DNA of 64,000 bases, taken from the NCBI GenBank assembly GCA_964016885.1, contig OZ024747.1:48236001-48300000 (forward strand). The letters run 5' to 3'. The number at the start of each line of letters is the position of its first letter. Position 1 is the stretch's first letter. Under the pieces are notes generated by a model. It saw nothing but the letters and a program-made list of their open reading frames with translations, was not told the origin of the DNA and did not search any database. A program made the translations under genes and the position numbers. The stretch comes from Eledone cirrhosa (taxonomy: Eukaryota). Positions 1 through 26,790 of this stretch are shown here, piece by piece.

Positions 1-3000
1 GGTGGAGACAGTGTAGCGGTGGAGACAGTGTAGTAGTAGAGACAGTGTAGTGGTGGAGACAGTGTAGTAGTAGAGACAGTGCAGTGGTGGAGACGGTGTA
101 GCGGTGGAGACAGTGTAGCGGTGGAGACAGTGTAGTGGTGGAGACAGTGTAGCGGTGGAGACAGTATAGTGGGGGAGAGAGTGTAGTGGTGGAGACAGTG
201 GAGTGGGGGAGACAGTGTAGCGGTGGAGACAGTGTAGCGGTGGAGACGACAGTGTAGCGGTGGAGACAGTGTAGTGGTGGAGACAGTGTAGTGGTGGAGA
301 CAATGTAGTGGTGGAGACAATGTAGTGGTGGAGACAGTGTAGTAGTAGAGACAGTGTAGTGGTGGAGACAATGTAGTAGTAGAGACAGTGTAGCGGTGGA
401 GACAGTGTAGTGGTGGAGACAGTGTAGTGGTGGAGACAGTGTAGCGATGGAGACAGTGTAGTAGTAGAGACAGTGTAGTGGTGGAGGCAGTGTAGTGGTG
501 GAGACAGTGTAGTGGTGGAGACAGTGTAGCGGTGGAGACAGTGTAGTAGTAGAGACAGTGTAGCGGTGGAGACAGTATAGTGGGGGAGAGAGTGTAGTGG
601 TGGAGACAGTGGAGTGGGGGAGACATTGTAGTGGTGGATACAGTGTAGTGGTGGAGACAGTGTAGCGGTGGAGACAGTGTAGCGGTGGAGACGACAGTGT
701 AGCGGTGGAGGCAGTGTAGCGGTGGAGACAGTGTAGCGATGGAGACAGTGTAGTGGTGAAGACAATGTAGTGGTGGAGACAGTGTAGCGGTGGAGACAGT
801 GTAGAGGTGGAGACAGTGTAATGGTGGAGACGGTGTAGCGGTGGAGACAGTCTAGTAGTAGAGACAGTGTAGTGGTGGAGACAGTATCGTGGGAGAGAGA
901 GTGTAGTGGTGGAGACAGTGGAGTGGGGGAGACAGTGGAGTGGGGGAGACATTGTAGTGGTGGAGACAGTGTAGCGGTGGAGACAGTGTAGCGGTGGAGA
1001 CAACAGTGTAGCGGTGGAGACAGTGTAATGGGGGAGGCAGTGTAGTGGTAGAGACAGTGTAGTAGTAGTAGAGACAGTACAGTGGTGGAGACAGTGTAGT
1101 GGTGGAGGCAGTGTAGTAGTAGAGACAGTGCAGTGGTGGAGACAGTGTAGTGATGGAGACAGTGTAGTGGTGGAGACAATGTAGTGATGGAGACAGTGTA
1201 GTGGTGGAGACAGTGTAGTAGTAGAGACAGTGTAGTGGTGGAGACAGTATAGTAGTAGAGACAGTGTAGTGGGGGAGTCAGTGTAGTGGTGGAGACAGTA
1301 TAGTAGTAGAGACAGTACAGTGGTGGAGACTGTAGTAGTGGAGACAGTGTAGTGGTGGAGACAGTGTAGTGGTGGAGACAGTGTAGTAGTAGAGACAGTA
1401 CAGTGGTGGAGGCAGTGTAGTGGTGGAGGCAGTGTAGTAGTAGAGACAGTGCAGTGGTGGAGACAGTGTAGTGATGGAGACAGTGTAGTGGTGGAGACAG
1501 TGTAGTGATGGAGACAGTGTAGTGGTGGAGACAGTGTAGTAGTAGAGACAGTGCAGTGGTGGAGACAGTGCAGTGGTGGAGACAGTGTAGTGGTGGAGAC
1601 AGTGTAGCGGTGGAGACAGTGTAGCGGTGGAGACAGTGTAGCAGTGGAGACAGTGCAGTGGTGGAGACAGTGTTGTGGTGGAGACAATGTAGTGGTGGAG
1701 ACAGTGTAGTAGTAGAGACAGTGCAGTGGTGGAGACAGTGTATTAGTAGAGACAGTGTATCGGTGAAGACAGTATAGTGGGGGAGAGAGTGTAGTGGTGG
1801 GGACAGTGGAGTGGGGGAGACATTGTAGTGGTGGATACAGTGTAGTGGTGGATACAGTGTAGTGGTGGAGACAGTGTAGCGGTGGAGACAGTGTAGCGGT
1901 GGAGACGACAGTGTAGCGGTGGAGACAGTGTAGCGGTGGAGACAGTGTAGCGGTGGAGACGACAGTGTAGCGGTGGAGACAGTGTAGCGGTGGAGACGGC
2001 AGTGTAGCGGTGGAGGCAGTGTAGCGGTGGAGACAGTGTAGCGGTGGAAACAGTGTAGTAGTAGAGACAGTGTAGTGGTGGAGACAGTGTAGTAGTAGAG
2101 ACAGTGCAGTGGTGGAGACGGTGTAGCGGTGGAGACAGTGTAGCGGTGGAGACAGTGTAGTGGTGGAGACAGTGTAGCGGTGGAGACAGTATAGTGGGGG
2201 AGAGAGTGTAGTGGTGGAGACAGTGGAGTGGGGGAGACAGTGTAGCGGTGGAGACAGTGTAGCGGTGGAGACGACAGTGTAGCGGTGGAGACAGTGTAGC
2301 GGTGGAGACAGTGTTTTGGTGGAGACAGTGTAGTGGTGGAGACAGTGTAGTAGTAGAGACAGTGTAGTGGGGGAGGAAGTGTAGTGGTGGAGACAGTGTA
2401 GTGGTGGAGACAGTGTAGTGGTGGAGACAATGTAGTGGTGGAGACAGTGTAGTAGTAGAGACAGTGCAGTGGTGGAGACAGTGTAGTGGTGGAGACAGTG
2501 TAGTAGTAGAGACAGTGTATCGGTGGAGACAGTATAGTGGGGGGAGAGAGTGTAGTGGTGGAGACAGTGGAGTGGGGGAGACATTGTAGTGGTGGATACA
2601 GTGTAGTGGTGGAGACAGTGTAGCGGTGGAGACAGTGTAGCGGTGGAGACAGTGTAGCGGTGGAGACGACAGTGTAGCGGTGGAGGCAGTGTAGCGGTGG
2701 AGACAGTGTAGTAGTAGAGACAGTGTAGTGGTGGAGACAGTGTAGCAGTAGAGACAGTGCAGTGGTGGAGGCAGTGTAGTGGTGGAGACAGTGTAGTGGT
2801 GGAGACAGTGTAGCAGTGGAGACAGTGTAGCGGTGGAGACAGTGTAGCGGTGGAGACAGTGTAGTGGTGGAGACAGTGTAGTAGTAGAGACGGTGTAGCG
2901 GTGGAGAGAGTATAGTGGGAGAGAGAGTGTAGTGGTGGAGACAGTGGAGTGGGGGAGACATTGTAGTGGTGGATACAGTGTAGTGGGGGAGACATTGTAG

Positions 3001-4065
3001 TGGTGGAGACAGTGTAGTGGTGGAGGCAGTGTAGTAGTAGAGACAGTGCAGTGGTGGAGACAGTGTAGTGGTGGAGACAGTGTAGTGGTGGAGACAGTGT
3101 AGTGGTGGAGACAGTGTAGTGGTGGAGACAGTGTAGTGGTGGAGACAGTGTAGTGGTAGAGACAGTGCAGTGGTGGAGACAGTGTAGTGGTGGAGACAGT
3201 GTAGTGGTGGAGACAGTGTAGCGGTGGAGACAGTGTAGCGGTGGAGACAGTGTAGCGCTGGACACAGTGCAGTGGTGGAGACAGTGTAGTGGTGGAGACA
3301 ATGTAGTGGTGGAGACAGTGTAGTAGTAGAGACAGTGCAGTGGTGGAGACAGTGTAGTGGTGTAGACAGTGTAGCGGTGGAGACAGTATAATGGGAGAGA
3401 GAGTGTAGTGGTGGAGACAGTGTTATGGGGGAGACAGTGTAGTGGTGGAGGCAGTGTAGTAGTAGAGACAGTGCAGTGGTGGAGACAGTGTAGTGGTGGA
3501 GACAGTGTAGTGGTGGAGACAGTGTAGTGGTGGAGACAGTGTAGTGATGGAGACAGTGTAGCGGTGGAGACAGTGTAGCGGTGGACAAAGTGTAGCGGTG
3601 GACAAAGTGTAGCGGTGGAAGCAGTGTAGCGGTGGAGACAGTGTAGTAGTAGAGACAGTGTAGCGGTGGAGACAGTATAATGGGAGAGACAGTGTAGTGG
3701 TGGAGGCAGTGTAGTAGTAGAGACAGTGCAGTGGTGGAGACAGTGTAGTGGTGGAGACAGTGTAGTGGTGGAGACAGTGTAGTGATGGAGACAGTGTAGT
3801 GGTGGAGACAGTGTAGTAGTAGAGACAGTGCAGTGGTGGAGACAGTGTACTGGTGGAGACAGTGTAGCGGTGGAGACAGTGTAGCGGTGGAGACAGTGTA
3901 GCGGTGGAGACAGTGTAGCGGTGGACACAGTGTAGCGGTGGAGGCAGTGTAGCGGTGGAGACAGTGTAGCGGTGGAGACAGTGTAGCAGTGGAGACAGTG
4001 TAGCGGTGAAGTCAGTGTAGTGGTGGAGACAGTGTAGCGGTGAAGTCAGTAGAGTGGTGGAGACA
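1..4065. repeat. 17-bp G-rich minisatellite (GGTGGAGACAGTGTAG[C/T]), intronic, runs off the window start
   Basis: Direct tandem repetition with recurring variant units (AGTAGAGAC, GGGGAGAGAG, GACGAC). Confidence 0.97.
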
Positions 4066-4330
4066 GTTGAGTGTTGTAGTGGTTTAGACTGCGTAGGGGT
4101 GGAGACATTGTAGTGTCAGGCAAATGCTTAGCAATATTTGTTTAAGCAGCTTTACATTCTGAATTGACCCTGTCAAGAATGAAAAACCTTGTAGCAGGCC
4201 TGCTAAACCCCATCCAGTGTGTTGTGTAAATTTCATATTTTGTTTCATAGATTCAGAGCATTTTTTGCGTGGGTTTGTATCAAGAGTGTTAAAGTCACTA
4301 CTTATCAATCTTTTATCATTGTATTTGTAG

Positions 4331-8899: not shown

Positions 8900-10878
8900 T
8901 CCGTTTAAGGATGCTGAGGTTTGCTCTCACCACCTCTGCCCATGTTTTTCGTGGTCTTTCTCTGCTATGTCTTCCTTGAACTGGCATTTCTTCACCCATC
9001 GGTCATCCTCCATGTGTATCACATGTCCATACCATCGCAGTCTCCTCTCCCGCACACTACAACCTATCCCTCTCAAACACAGTTTCTCTCTCAACACATC
9101 CAGGCTCGGTCGTTCACGCACATTGACATTGCACATCCAACAGAGCATGCTTGCCTCATTTCTCTCCAGCCGTCGCATATCCTCTGCTGTTGTTGCCCAT
9201 GTCTCACTACCATGCAACATCGCGCTCCTCACACAGCATCATATAACCGGCCTTTCGTACGCAGGGAGAAACCCTTCTTCATCAGCAGAGGAAGCAGCTC
9301 CCTAAACTTCTTCCAACCCATCCTTATTCTAGATACTATGGCCTCGGAACACCCCTCTCCCATGCTAATCCGATCACCTAGGTACCGGAAGCTATCAGCC
9401 ACTTCTATAGCACCCACCTACATTTGAAAAATGTGTCTATCAATGCGACTTCTACTAAATTTCCTTGTACATCTACTGCATATGTATTTCTCCCTACCTG
9501 TTAGTTTGCCTGCTATCCCACTACATCTCTTGTGTACCCAAGATCTGCATTGTGTGCATTTTATAGAATTTATGCCAGTTCCTTCTCTGCATATCGAACA
9601 TGGCCATTTCCCTGACAGAATCAAAGTTCTGTCCTCTTTTCTACTCATCAACACTTTTGTCTTAGCTAGATTCACTCTCAGTCCTCTTGATTCCAACTGT
9701 TGTTTCCATAGCCAGAATTTATTCTCTAGCTCCTCTACTGATTCTGCTATAAGAACCAGATCGTCAGCATAGAGAAGTTTCCATGGACAGCCAGTCTTAA
9801 ACTTCTCTGTTATAGCTTGGAGGACTATAATGAACAAGAGCGGGCTGAGGACCGAACCTTGATGTACTCCTACTTGTATCTGGAATTCCTCACTAAACTC
9901 CATTCCTACCCTGACTTTACTGAGAGTACCTCTGTACAAAGTTTGCACTGTCCTCACAAGCCATTCCTCAACACCTAGTTTCCTTAGGGACCACCAGATG
10001 ACAGATCGGGGTACCCTATCAAAGGCCTTCTCTAGGTCAACAAAGGCTAACTATAGTGGCTTATTCTTCTCTAAGAACCTCTCTTGTAATTGTCTCACCA
10101 AGAAGAGGGCATCTGTTGTACTTTTCCCAGGCACAAAACCAAACTGCATCTCATCTAGTTTGACCCTTTCTCTAATTAGTTGTGCTAATATCCTTTCTGC
10201 CACTTTCATAGCCTGATCCATCAGTTTTATACCCCTATAATTGCTCCTCTCCAGAGCATCCCGTTTACCTTTCTAGCAATTTATGAGAATACTGCTGCAC
10301 CAGTCTTTGGGTATGACACCACCATATATAGCCTGATTGATGATGCGTCCAACCAGTTTAGTGCCTTCGTCCCCTGATGCCTTCAGCATCTCAGCAACTA
10401 TCCCCAACAGCCTTACCATTTTTCATTTTCTTAATCGCCTCTTGGACCCTATATTCGTCAATCTCAATAGCTGGTCCCTCTGTCAGATCTACTGAGGGTA
10501 ATTTCTCTCTCTCCCATTCATTCTCCACATTCATCAGTCTCTCATAATGACATTTCCAGGCCTCTTTTTTCTGATCATTCATGACACTAAGTACACCGGC
10601 ATCATTCCGGACACATTTATCTCCAACAACATTCTGATTTGCATTGACACACTGCCTTGCAATGTGGAACACCACACGCCTCTGATCTTCCCGTCACAGA
10701 ACATTGGCAAACCCCCTACTCTCAGCCTCCCTCCGTGCTAAGTACACCTGGCGTCTAGCTCTCTCTTAGCGGCTGTATATCCTTCTCTACTCCCACCCTT
10801 TTTCCAAGCCTTCCATGCTAGTCTTTTGTCTCTAATGGCCTTATCTACTGTGCTGTTCCACCACCAGGTCACTCTGTC
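8900..10878 (-). mobile_element. Second RTE-clade LINE fragment, frameshifted
   Basis: ORFs 10391..10675, 9418..9957, 9229..9417 and 8927..9232 are colinear homologues of the 5712-7962 element (QGSVLSP, LLYADD, FRYLG). Confidence 0.92.
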
Positions 10879-10935: not shown

Positions 10936-11111
10936 GTATATATATATATATATACAAATGGATATATGAGAGGGATGAACACTGTTACAAGTATTGCAAA
11001 TGACCAAGTTAGCTAGGTTGAAAAATACTAATTTAAAATAATACGGTTTGCCTGTCTTGATTTAAAATAATAAATCAATAAAAATAACAAACCTCTATTG
11101 GCAATGGCTGT

Positions 11112-11210
11112 GATACCCGGACAAATTTTTAATTTGTTTCGCAACAATTAAGTGAAAGTTACTATTCCTGTGCTCTTCTGCGAGTATCCAGAAATTGGTA
11201 AGTTTCACTT
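11112..11210 (-). ncRNA. Type I hammerhead (core U4A variant) with loop II/5'-flank pairing
   Basis: GATACTCG CAGAAGA GCA..TGC GAAA CAAATT AAA AATTTG TC CGGGTATC; upstream AAGTGAAACTTAC is complementary to loop II GTAACTTTCACTT. Confidence 0.7.
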
Positions 11211-12061
11211 CAAAATACTTAAGAAGACTGAGAAATATGTGTTGTTGAACGCACATGTGTCACAGCGCCTAACTCGTCTATATATGTATATATATATATA
11301 TATTTTCTGAGTAAATCATTCATCAAATTTAACGGTTAACAAACAAGATTGGAGTTATCTTTCCCTTTTCAATTATGCAAACATAAACATATTATATGTA
11401 CGATAAACTATATAACTTCGCTAAATTAACAATATTCTGAAAACATTTTCAATGTTGGAACAAAATATTCGAATCTACAATTGTTCTCCTCTTACAACTT
11501 GAATCACCTGTTTTTTTATTTAAAATGCAAAATCAACATCCTATAACTCATAATAGAAATATAAACAACTAATAATTGTAAATTATTTCTATTTCTATAA
11601 TACTTATACATGCACAAGTATTAATCTATATAGATATTTATACACTTATAACCTATTGTAATGTAATAAGATAAAATATACTTACAACCATAATTCTTCA
11701 TATAATCTAATTGATTATATATACAATATTATAACTCATAATATAGCTAAATAAATTTAAATTCTGGAATCATATTCCACCATTCCCCCAAATTGTTAAT
11801 TCCTTTTAAATTAACGTAAATACAAGCTCTTCTTTCTTTTTTCTTCTTCCTACTCATACATACATATATCTTAATTATTTAAATTCTGCATAGCGTCTAA
11901 AATAACGTTTTTTCAGCCCTATACCTCAACCTCATTTGCATACTCATCTTAATAATTTGAAATATCTGACTTTTCTTCTCTTTCCCTTCACTATCCAAGG
12001 AAAACTTGAACCGTTAAGGTATCTTTCCTTGGTTATGTCAAAATTTATAAAACAAACTTTG

Positions 12062-25330: not shown

Positions 25331-25396
<66 letters not shown>

Positions 25397-25415
25397 AATT
25401 GAATATAAAAGAGAG

Positions 25416-26190
25416 ATAAACACAGATATATACATATATGTGTTCAAATCGTAAGGAACCAGATTCGCTAGGGTGGAAAAAAACTAACCATGAACAATAG
25501 GGTTTGCTAGACTCAATTTAAATGAATCAAGAAAAGAAATACAAACCGATATTGGGGCAACTGCCAGACACCCAGCTTTTGGTAATGCTGTTTCGCAGTT
25601 TTAGTGAAGGGAGTTACCAATTCTTTTGCTCATCAGTGGGTGTAAAATTAGTAAACCCTTCACTCCTAAGTATCTCAGAAGACTGAATAGTGTGCATATA
25701 AAAAGTAATGCACATGGCATCAGAACCTAGCATGTCTCATAAACGTATAGTACTAAAAATAGCAGCCAAGTTTACTCGACATTTAAATTAGCTCTACAAA
25801 TTCAAGGAGCCGAATATATCAAAGGTATATATTGAGTTAGAAACTCAATACAGTCTCTTACAATTAAATAGCTCAAGGAAAGAGATTTTTCCAGGCCGTG
25901 TAATATAAACACAGATATATACATGTATGTATTCAAATCGTAAGGGACCAGATTCGCTAGGGGGAAAAAAATACTAACTATGAACAATAGGGTTTGCCAG
26001 ACTGAATTTAAAAGAATCAAGAAAAGAAATACAAACCGATATTGGGGCAACTGCCAGACACCCAGACAGCTTTTGGTAATGTTGTTTCGCAGTTTTAGTG
26101 AAGGGAATTACCAATTCTTTTGCTCATCAGTGGGTGTAAAATTAGTAAACCTATTTTGAGTTTCTAACTCAATATATACCTTTGATATAT
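25416..26190 (-). mobile_element. Retrozyme/PLE-like element: two ~240-bp direct repeats each with a hammerhead, plus a short inverted piece
   Basis: Repeats ~25416-25657 and ~25904-26151; cores 494 bp apart; 26152-26190 is inverted relative to ~25814-25850. Confidence 0.78.
26058..26137 (-). ncRNA. Type I hammerhead ribozyme, intact core
   Basis: ACACCCA CTGATGA GCA..TGC GAAA CAAC ATTACCAAAA GCTG TC^ TGGGTGT; the sister copy 25568-25643 lacks 4 nt at the cleavage site. Confidence 0.85.
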
Positions 26191-26285: not shown

Positions 26286-26464
26286 ATGCTTTGGGAGGGT
26301 CATGTTGCCAATAAGAAACACACGCACCAGTTGCTTTCACTTCAATTTATTATAAATTAAATTTATAAACAGCGATGTATTCATGAATGTATGTATAGTA
26401 TATTTGGTAATATACTGCATGTTTAATTAAAAACATTTTGAAGACCTTGCGCTTTTATTTTAAA

Positions 26465-26504
26465 GCTGACAGATCTGTTTCACACTGTTGGTGTTCCTCA
26501 GAGC
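26465..26504 (-). ncRNA. Minimal hammerhead inside a fold-back (arms ~26371-26465 and ~26562-26657)
   Basis: GCT CTGAGGA ACAC CAACA GTGT GAAA CAGATCTG TC^ AGC; palindromic stem III. Confidence 0.78.
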
Positions 26505-26790
26505 AGCGTACTCCCCGACATCTGCCGTGGTGAAAAAAAGAAGTAAGTCTCATCGTCACTACTTTAAAATAAAAGCGCAAGGTCTTCAAAATGTTTTTAA
26601 TTAAACATACAGTATATTACCAAATATACTATACATACATTCATGTATACATAGCTATTTCAGAGCACCAATTCTAATATATATATATATATATATATTT
26701 ATTATTATTATGTAATAAACAACATAAGGCAATTATTTCCATTTACCATATGGATTCTAGAATCCATATTCAATAAACAAACCAGGATTT

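Follow-up and report, generated by a model that had tools for sequence, protein, structure and literature searches.

Stem I-stem II pseudoknots of at least 4 bp are predicted in about 40% of hammerhead ribozymes and in all three hammerhead types; a 6-bp pseudoknot was required for speed in a tested construct, and the human C10 ribozyme carries one of 5 bp (Perreault 2011, PMC3088659). Whether Penelope-type elements need hammerheads for their mobility is an open question (Craig 2021). Here we describe a hammerhead from a 64,000-nt stretch of the Eledone cirrhosa genome (the window) in which loop II is predicted to pair with the 5' flank. The stem I-II pseudoknot itself is already published; the length of the helix is the new part. 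Our preferred reading, to which we assign a probability of roughly 0.6, is a type I hammerhead within a Penelope-mobilised repeat in which loop II and the 5' flank form a helix whose proximal half braces stem I against a 3-bp stem II.

A full type I hammerhead layout, open at stem I, occupies 11112-11210 on the minus strand (letters here are those of the minus strand). A 22-nt flank strand (11189..11210) ends flush with the 5' arm of stem I (11181..11188), which pairs with the 3' arm (11112..11119) over 8 bp, including one U.G pair that results from a private change in the 5' arm. Core positions 3-9 occupy 11174..11180 and include a U-to-A change at position 4 (U4A, at 11179). This change is common to the whole of lineage A, one of five deep lineages that we drew by eye from a FastTree phylogeny and of which lineage B is paraphyletic. 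The 5' arm of the 3-bp stem II follows (11171..11173, partner 11141-11143), and then a 27-nt loop II (11144..11170). Within the loop, 11150..11170 starts flush with stem II and supplies the second strand of the flank-loop II helix, and 11144..11149 is an unpaired linker returning to stem II, a segment of 3-15 nt among subfamilies. The 3' arm of stem II and the GAAA box take up 11137..11143, and stem III lies at 11121..11137 (7 bp, 3-nt loop). The GUC triplet ends at 11120, and by the hammerhead consensus the predicted cleavage site falls 3' of C17, at 11119..11120, again on the minus strand.

The blocks stand in the CGS order of an ordinary type I hammerhead, which rules out a non-circular permutation. 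An Rfam scan of the window at E<=1 found no hammerhead family, and neither did a scan at E<=10 of seven further loci, six of which have canonical cores; the models likely miss these hammerheads because of the long loop II. In a 40-row alignment, 92%, 100% and 95% of cells are paired in stems I, II and III, the value for stem II being fixed by the recruiting pattern, and six of the eight stem I pairs have two-sided changes.

Flank and loop II of the 11112-11210 copy are computed to pair over 19 bp in three segments (-16.5 kcal/mol). This pairing was matched by a fraction of 0.0006 of 5,000 loop shuffles and by 0.042 of 5,000 random window positions, the latter fraction being probably inflated by microsatellites. 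At 25568..25664 on the minus strand, a lineage B hammerhead with a canonical core has a flank-loop II helix of 20 bp (-24.8 kcal/mol), matched by none of 5,000 shuffles and by 0.005 of window positions. The earlier note on this DNA had described a hammerhead variant in which loop II pairs with the 5' flank, and this stands at both loci; it overlooked the loss of 4 nt spanning the cleavage triplet in the 25568-25664 copy.

That copy belongs to a lineage B insertion at 25396..26190 (minus strand), which comprises about 1.5 tandem units with a 494-bp period, is flanked by (TA)n tracts and includes a short inverted 5' piece (26156-26190, annotated on the minus strand). One unit upstream of the 25568-25664 copy lies a third hammerhead, also of lineage B (26062..26142, minus strand), with an intact core and GUC; its distal flank is gone at the 5' inversion. 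The window has other repetitive features. At 26370-26650, next to the lineage B insertion, lie MITE-like inverted repeats of about 100 bp with a short spacer, and a minisatellite with a 17-bp period, about 238 copies and a strong G skew fills 1-4067. On the minus strand near 10050, 49479, 52698 and 56207 are several stretches that, by their motifs, are probably LINE-like reverse transcriptase fragments.

The hammerheads are part of a repeat with a unit of about 500 bp that is non-coding and retrozyme-like and inserts in (TA)n. The lineage A copy in the window (10952..11277, minus strand; L001 1748..1423) is 5'-truncated to about 0.7 unit and has (TA)n on both sides. Two DNA searches of the animal's own genome (3.0 Gb) gave 1,905 and 2,032 candidates, 40 of which were scored from each. 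Exact-pattern motif copies number at least 1,659 genome-wide (290 + 623 with U4 + 666 with A4 + 80 with C4 or G4), against 0-1 matches for reversed-pattern controls; these counts are lower bounds because stem II and GAAA were held fixed. This family, 1,600+ motifs strong, escapes the Rfam models. The profile excludes six matches whose stem II is long and one match put down to chance. Eleven distinct tandem pairs were found, ten with a period of 492-550 bp and the eleventh with one of 379 bp, and among 60 pattern matches in viral contigs none folds as a hammerhead.

Insertion anatomy was assessed in two samples of 30 loci each, with two overlapping pairs among them. The 3' ends of the elements form two clusters within the unit and continue into (TA)n, and the 5' ends are variable. 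Inverted 5' pieces occur at 16/30 and 5/30 loci, and inserts exceed one unit at 11/30 and 16/30. Penelope-like elements show the same signature, namely an inverted 5'-truncated piece, a (TA)n target and fixed 3' ends (Craig 2021). This likeness argues that the repeat is likely mobilised by Penelope-like elements. The genome contains two abundant young Penelope-like families, with many open frames of 784 aa and 775 aa (L200, L353, L354) and weak matches to reverse transcriptase and GIY-YIG domains. Compared with these two families (30 and 24 loci), the unit gave no match beyond microsatellite, and because the two families have no sequence in common with it, we infer Penelope mobilisation rather than read it directly.

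Several further observations were made around the repeat. In a loose scan, the only core-like motif found lay at L353:9504, about 1.5 kb past the 784-aa frame, and it was weak. Just ahead of the 3' end of the unit lies a small inverted repeat (10970-11000 on the minus strand; L062:1711-1740), which lineages A and C retain and the window copy has in altered form; it is a candidate reverse-transcriptase recognition hairpin. Contig depth at 10996-11091, in the 3' part of the unit, is several-fold that of the hammerhead, a depth that is not to be equated with copy number and that is expected from many 5'-truncated copies or from a related shorter repeat. Six loci (L089, L095, L099, L108, L110, L111) fall into a second hammerhead-like class: their stem II is long, and their stem III region is short and in part palindromic. 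Fragments of Penelope-like reverse transcriptase or GIY-YIG lie close by in L108 and L127.

We then turn to the helix as a property of the family. Of 217 copies found, 213 have intact anchors, and 141 of these make up the 18 subfamilies with at least two loci. The flank-loop II helix is predicted in all 18, with 15-23 bp. In a first clustering it is flush with stems I and II in 10/17 subfamilies and at most 3 nt off in 16/17. The predicted pairing includes at least 4 bp between loop II and the stem I side that share no nucleotide with stems I-III. Across 17 subfamilies, the pairing of a flank with its own loop is stronger than that of swapped partners by 3.8 kcal/mol (permutation p 1e-5, the subfamilies being related), and two controls gave p values of 0.9 and 0.65. 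Sense-strand pairing beats antisense in 16/17 subfamilies, and the helix contains 49 G.U pairs versus 4 A.C oppositions. Among the five deep lineages, the true matching of partners ranks 1/120 for the whole helix, for its proximal half and for stem I as a control, and two further controls rank 45 and 118.

In the 40-row alignment, made with plain MAFFT from sequence only, the helix is paired in 80% of cells in its proximal and middle segments and in 84% of cells in its distal segment. Two-sided changes are seen in 6/10 proximal and middle pairs and in 3/7 distal pairs, and 88% of the whole structure is paired, versus 33-48% when it is slid. One pair table misplaces the distal anchor for subfamilies F1 and F2 and is used qualitatively. 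The support for the helix comes from its junction-proximal half: taken alone across the five lineages, the distal half ranks 18/120 and is not significant. This bears on two claims of the earlier note. The swap it took to be compensatory is real (A-U in 11 and G-C in 13 of 40 rows, columns 18-72), but amounts to one deep change plus indels. The conserved helix that it proposed in place of the usual loop-loop contact agrees with the lineage-level covariation, the strand bias and the flush fit, but the distal segment that it cited is without significance on its own.

Finer-grained tests were negative. An R-scape-like, tree-aware column G-test (161/169 copies) gave no significant pair, stem I included: the lowest E is 0.44, flank-loop II pairs are absent among the best, and with the tree null the best stem I pair reaches E 0.49, so that the test has no power even for stem I. 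Independent sister-pair contrasts favoured own partners in 2/7 informative pairs, and RNAalifold returned zero consensus pairs. We read these nulls as the outcome of low power and shifting registers, and the covariation as supported at the level of lineages only. In nested folding the hairpin is preferred over the hammerhead in most cases, and in four single units folded as circles the helix has probabilities of 0.01, 0.65, 0.79 and 0.18.

A route can be proposed by which such a helix would serve the hammerhead. It would zip first, co-transcriptionally, as a hairpin that presents the core, flanked by one arm each of stems I and II, in its loop. Docking of the downstream strand would come next and form stem II, stem III and stem I, and the RNA would be cut after GUC. 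In tandem transcripts the cut would free a unit-length RNA, which could circularise and be reverse transcribed into (TA)n. The copy in the window is a truncated insertion. Because the helix leaves all nucleotides of the core and of stems I-III unused, it is compatible with the hammerhead as a pseudoknot. By a rough estimate (2.8 A per helical step and 6.5 A per linker nucleotide), opening 0-1 bp suffices in 14/18 subfamilies, 2 bp have to open in one, and in three a linker otherwise too short calls for 4 bp. A cis-active fold would thus require 0-4 bp of fraying at the tip, and the distal half would likely be a stabiliser, though it may act also as a brake.

The same hairpin could instead be mainly a brake or timer: having zipped first, it would form a rod that the short linker is unable to span, keeping the 3-bp stem II open and making the cutting of precursors or of monomer circles slow or dependent on assistance. 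For the copies in the window the hairpin is indeed the predicted minimum, in five subfamilies it lies 4.5-16.6 kcal/mol below the flank-free fold (a figure in which the pseudoknot term is not included), in three subfamilies linkers of 4-5 nt face a span of 23-24 nt, and two-sided changes extend to the distal tip. A helix kept for inhibition is nevertheless harder to reconcile with one that takes up no nucleotide of the stems or core, starts flush with both stems, has its covariation peak beside the junction and in most subfamilies needs next to no fraying, and we consider it unlikely that braking is the main role. The earlier note had left the choice between a pseudoknot and an inhibitory helix open. 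The proximal half suits the known pseudoknot design (Perreault 2011), and of the two we consider the pseudoknot the likelier.

The core of lineage A raises a different issue. Lineages B-E have the canonical core CUGAnGA...GAAA...UH, and the 11112-11210 copy and lineage A depart from it at position 4. U4 contacts position 7 in the hammerhead crystal structure. U4A is common to the 666 exact-pattern A4 copies, about 40% of motif copies; the earlier note had recognised the change and judged the copy probably inactive, but what it took for the decay of one copy is a lineage-wide state. A core-free search of lineage A gave 972 matches, and 40 in controls; among the first 100 matches listed, 93 are element-like. 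Of these 93, read by eye, 71 have A at position 4 and 11 each have C and U; A6C occurs in 4, G10.1 is absent in 16 and CUGA is kept in 2, and G5, G8 and A9 are present in 93, 92 and 92. Like searches of other lineages, also read by eye, gave U4 in 92/100 and 93/100 rows, with N7 variable.

A tree of 83 copies places U4 at the base, followed by A4 and then by nested A6C, U4C, G10.1C without a change in its partner, and C3U or C3A; support for some of its deep branches is poor, and since these variants were fetched deliberately the tree does not yield a rate. The helices have gone on changing after U4A. One stem I pair is C-G in 34 and U-A in 29 of 72 copies, and one flank-loop II pair is U.G in 41, U-A in 17 and C-G in 14 of 75, the latter not significant (Fisher p 0.096) in copies that are not independent. 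Five tandem pairs have A4. Contigs were also read from two sequencing runs of unspecified kind that may come from the source sample; no alternative letter at position 4 reached 15% in them, an observation that we leave out of the evidence. In the most eroded sub-lineage (L219, L221, L224, L226), stem III has been duplicated together with the cleavage triplet and a portion of the loop II strand of the distal helix, and still this sub-lineage has several dispersed copies.

Low activity is reported for single mutants of the CUGA turn in a type III hammerhead (Roberts 2023). With U4A fixed in lineage A, cleavage there is likely slow or lost. Because the lineage has been amplified and its helices have been kept compensating, the fold would likely be selected while catalysis is relaxed. 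A bolder idea, which we offer tentatively and think more apt to be wrong than right, is that the two-turn helix steadies the junction enough for an A4 hammerhead to cut and rejoin, and that this drove the lineage to about 900 copies. Were it true, this would be a natural active CAGAnGA hammerhead with the longest tertiary brace described, and its sub-lineages would record a stepwise loss of catalysis with the scaffold retained. In all lineages, subfamily members lie a median 2.6-4.3% from the subfamily majority and are thus of similar age. Canonical, U4A and further eroded lineages, all amplified, therefore coexist in one genome, which makes cleavage rate directly comparable with copy success and bears on the question raised by Craig (2021).

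In another reading, the chief reason for keeping the fold would be to signal docking or priming to the Penelope reverse transcriptase, or to tether the RNA ends; cleavage would be dispensable and the U4A lineage catalytically dead. The near-complete loss of CUGA in lineage A would fit, as would the shared A6C, U4C, C3U/C3A and G10.1 changes, the last without a partner change, and the continuing compensation of the helices; Naiad elements, moreover, spread without hammerheads (Craig 2021). We find this improbable, more so than a main role in braking. A fold freed from cleavage would hardly hold G5, G8 and A9 in nearly all of the same 93 rows and retain GAAA and GUC, the other lineages hold U4 where N7 varies, and U4C and A6C are known natural variants of low activity (Perreault 2011).

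We give very little weight to a third alternative, a domain-swapped double hammerhead imposed by the rod, in which the core-bearing hairpin head of one unit would dock the GAAA-stem III-GUC tail of the next and only multimers would be cut. Two antiparallel rods of equal length would, by their geometry, join head to tail, lineages B and E have short linkers, and animal type I hammerheads are often dimeric through a stem III swap (Cervera 2014, 2020). Stem III is stable here, however, with 5-13 bp in subfamily majorities, and in most lineages the linkers reach for the cis fold. That the complementarity is a DNA-level quasi-palindrome matched by template switching, without a selected RNA function, is scarcely credible, since despite arms just 18-19 nt apart and the lack of column-level significance, the strand asymmetry, the many G.U pairs, the internal loops that persist without being perfected and a helix that stops at the edges of stems I and II whether the lineage has a stem I of 7 bp or of 8 bp all speak against it.

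With the bracing helix as our preferred reading, the repeat can be set beside the systems already described. In the open literature we found no brace of such length and no natural U4A family; subscription papers or supplements may contain one. Like the animal non-LTR retrozymes (PMC7229834; 10.64898/2026.07.22.740005), the unit is non-coding, a few hundred bases long and below 50% GC, contains a single type I hammerhead, occurs both in tandem and as solo copies, and has Penelope-like elements beside it (Cervera and de la Pena 2020; Li et al. 2026). Unlike them, it has a unit of about 500 bp found mostly as dispersed inserts of 0.7-1.5 units in (TA)n with inverted 5' pieces, has a stable stem III and no loop 1-loop 2 motif, and is known from DNA alone. 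The minimal Penelope hammerheads are likewise type I, with many consensus families per genome and inverted neighbours a few hundred bases away, but have a helix II of 7-8 bp, a short helix I and a minimal helix III (Cervera 2014), whereas here helix II has 3 bp, helix I 7-8 bp and helix III 5-13 bp.

Among pseudoknotted forms, the PK hammerhead has a pseudoknot that replaces helix II, where ours extends beyond it (Zhan et al. 2024, PMC11300833), and in the non-circular permutations, type-SGC also has a fourth helix linking stems I and II, where ours has the CGS order (Eckert et al. 2023, PMC10085705). In design there is a likeness to the hammerheads of Perreault (2011), namely the type II consensus and the human C10 hammerhead, in which a Watson-Crick helix past a very short stem II substitutes for the loop-loop contact. 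The strand after stem II finds its partner on the stem I side, so that our hammerhead would resemble the type II pseudoknot permuted into type I. The core variants named in the accessible text of that paper are U4C, A6C, U3-A8, U15-A16 and insertions, and A4 is not among these. Its pseudoknots have 4-6 bp; here 15-23 bp are predicted, in two or three segments, within a loop II of 23-36 nt, and the host is a high-copy animal retroelement. If the prediction holds, tertiary braces in hammerheads, known so far at a few pairs, would range up to about two helical turns.
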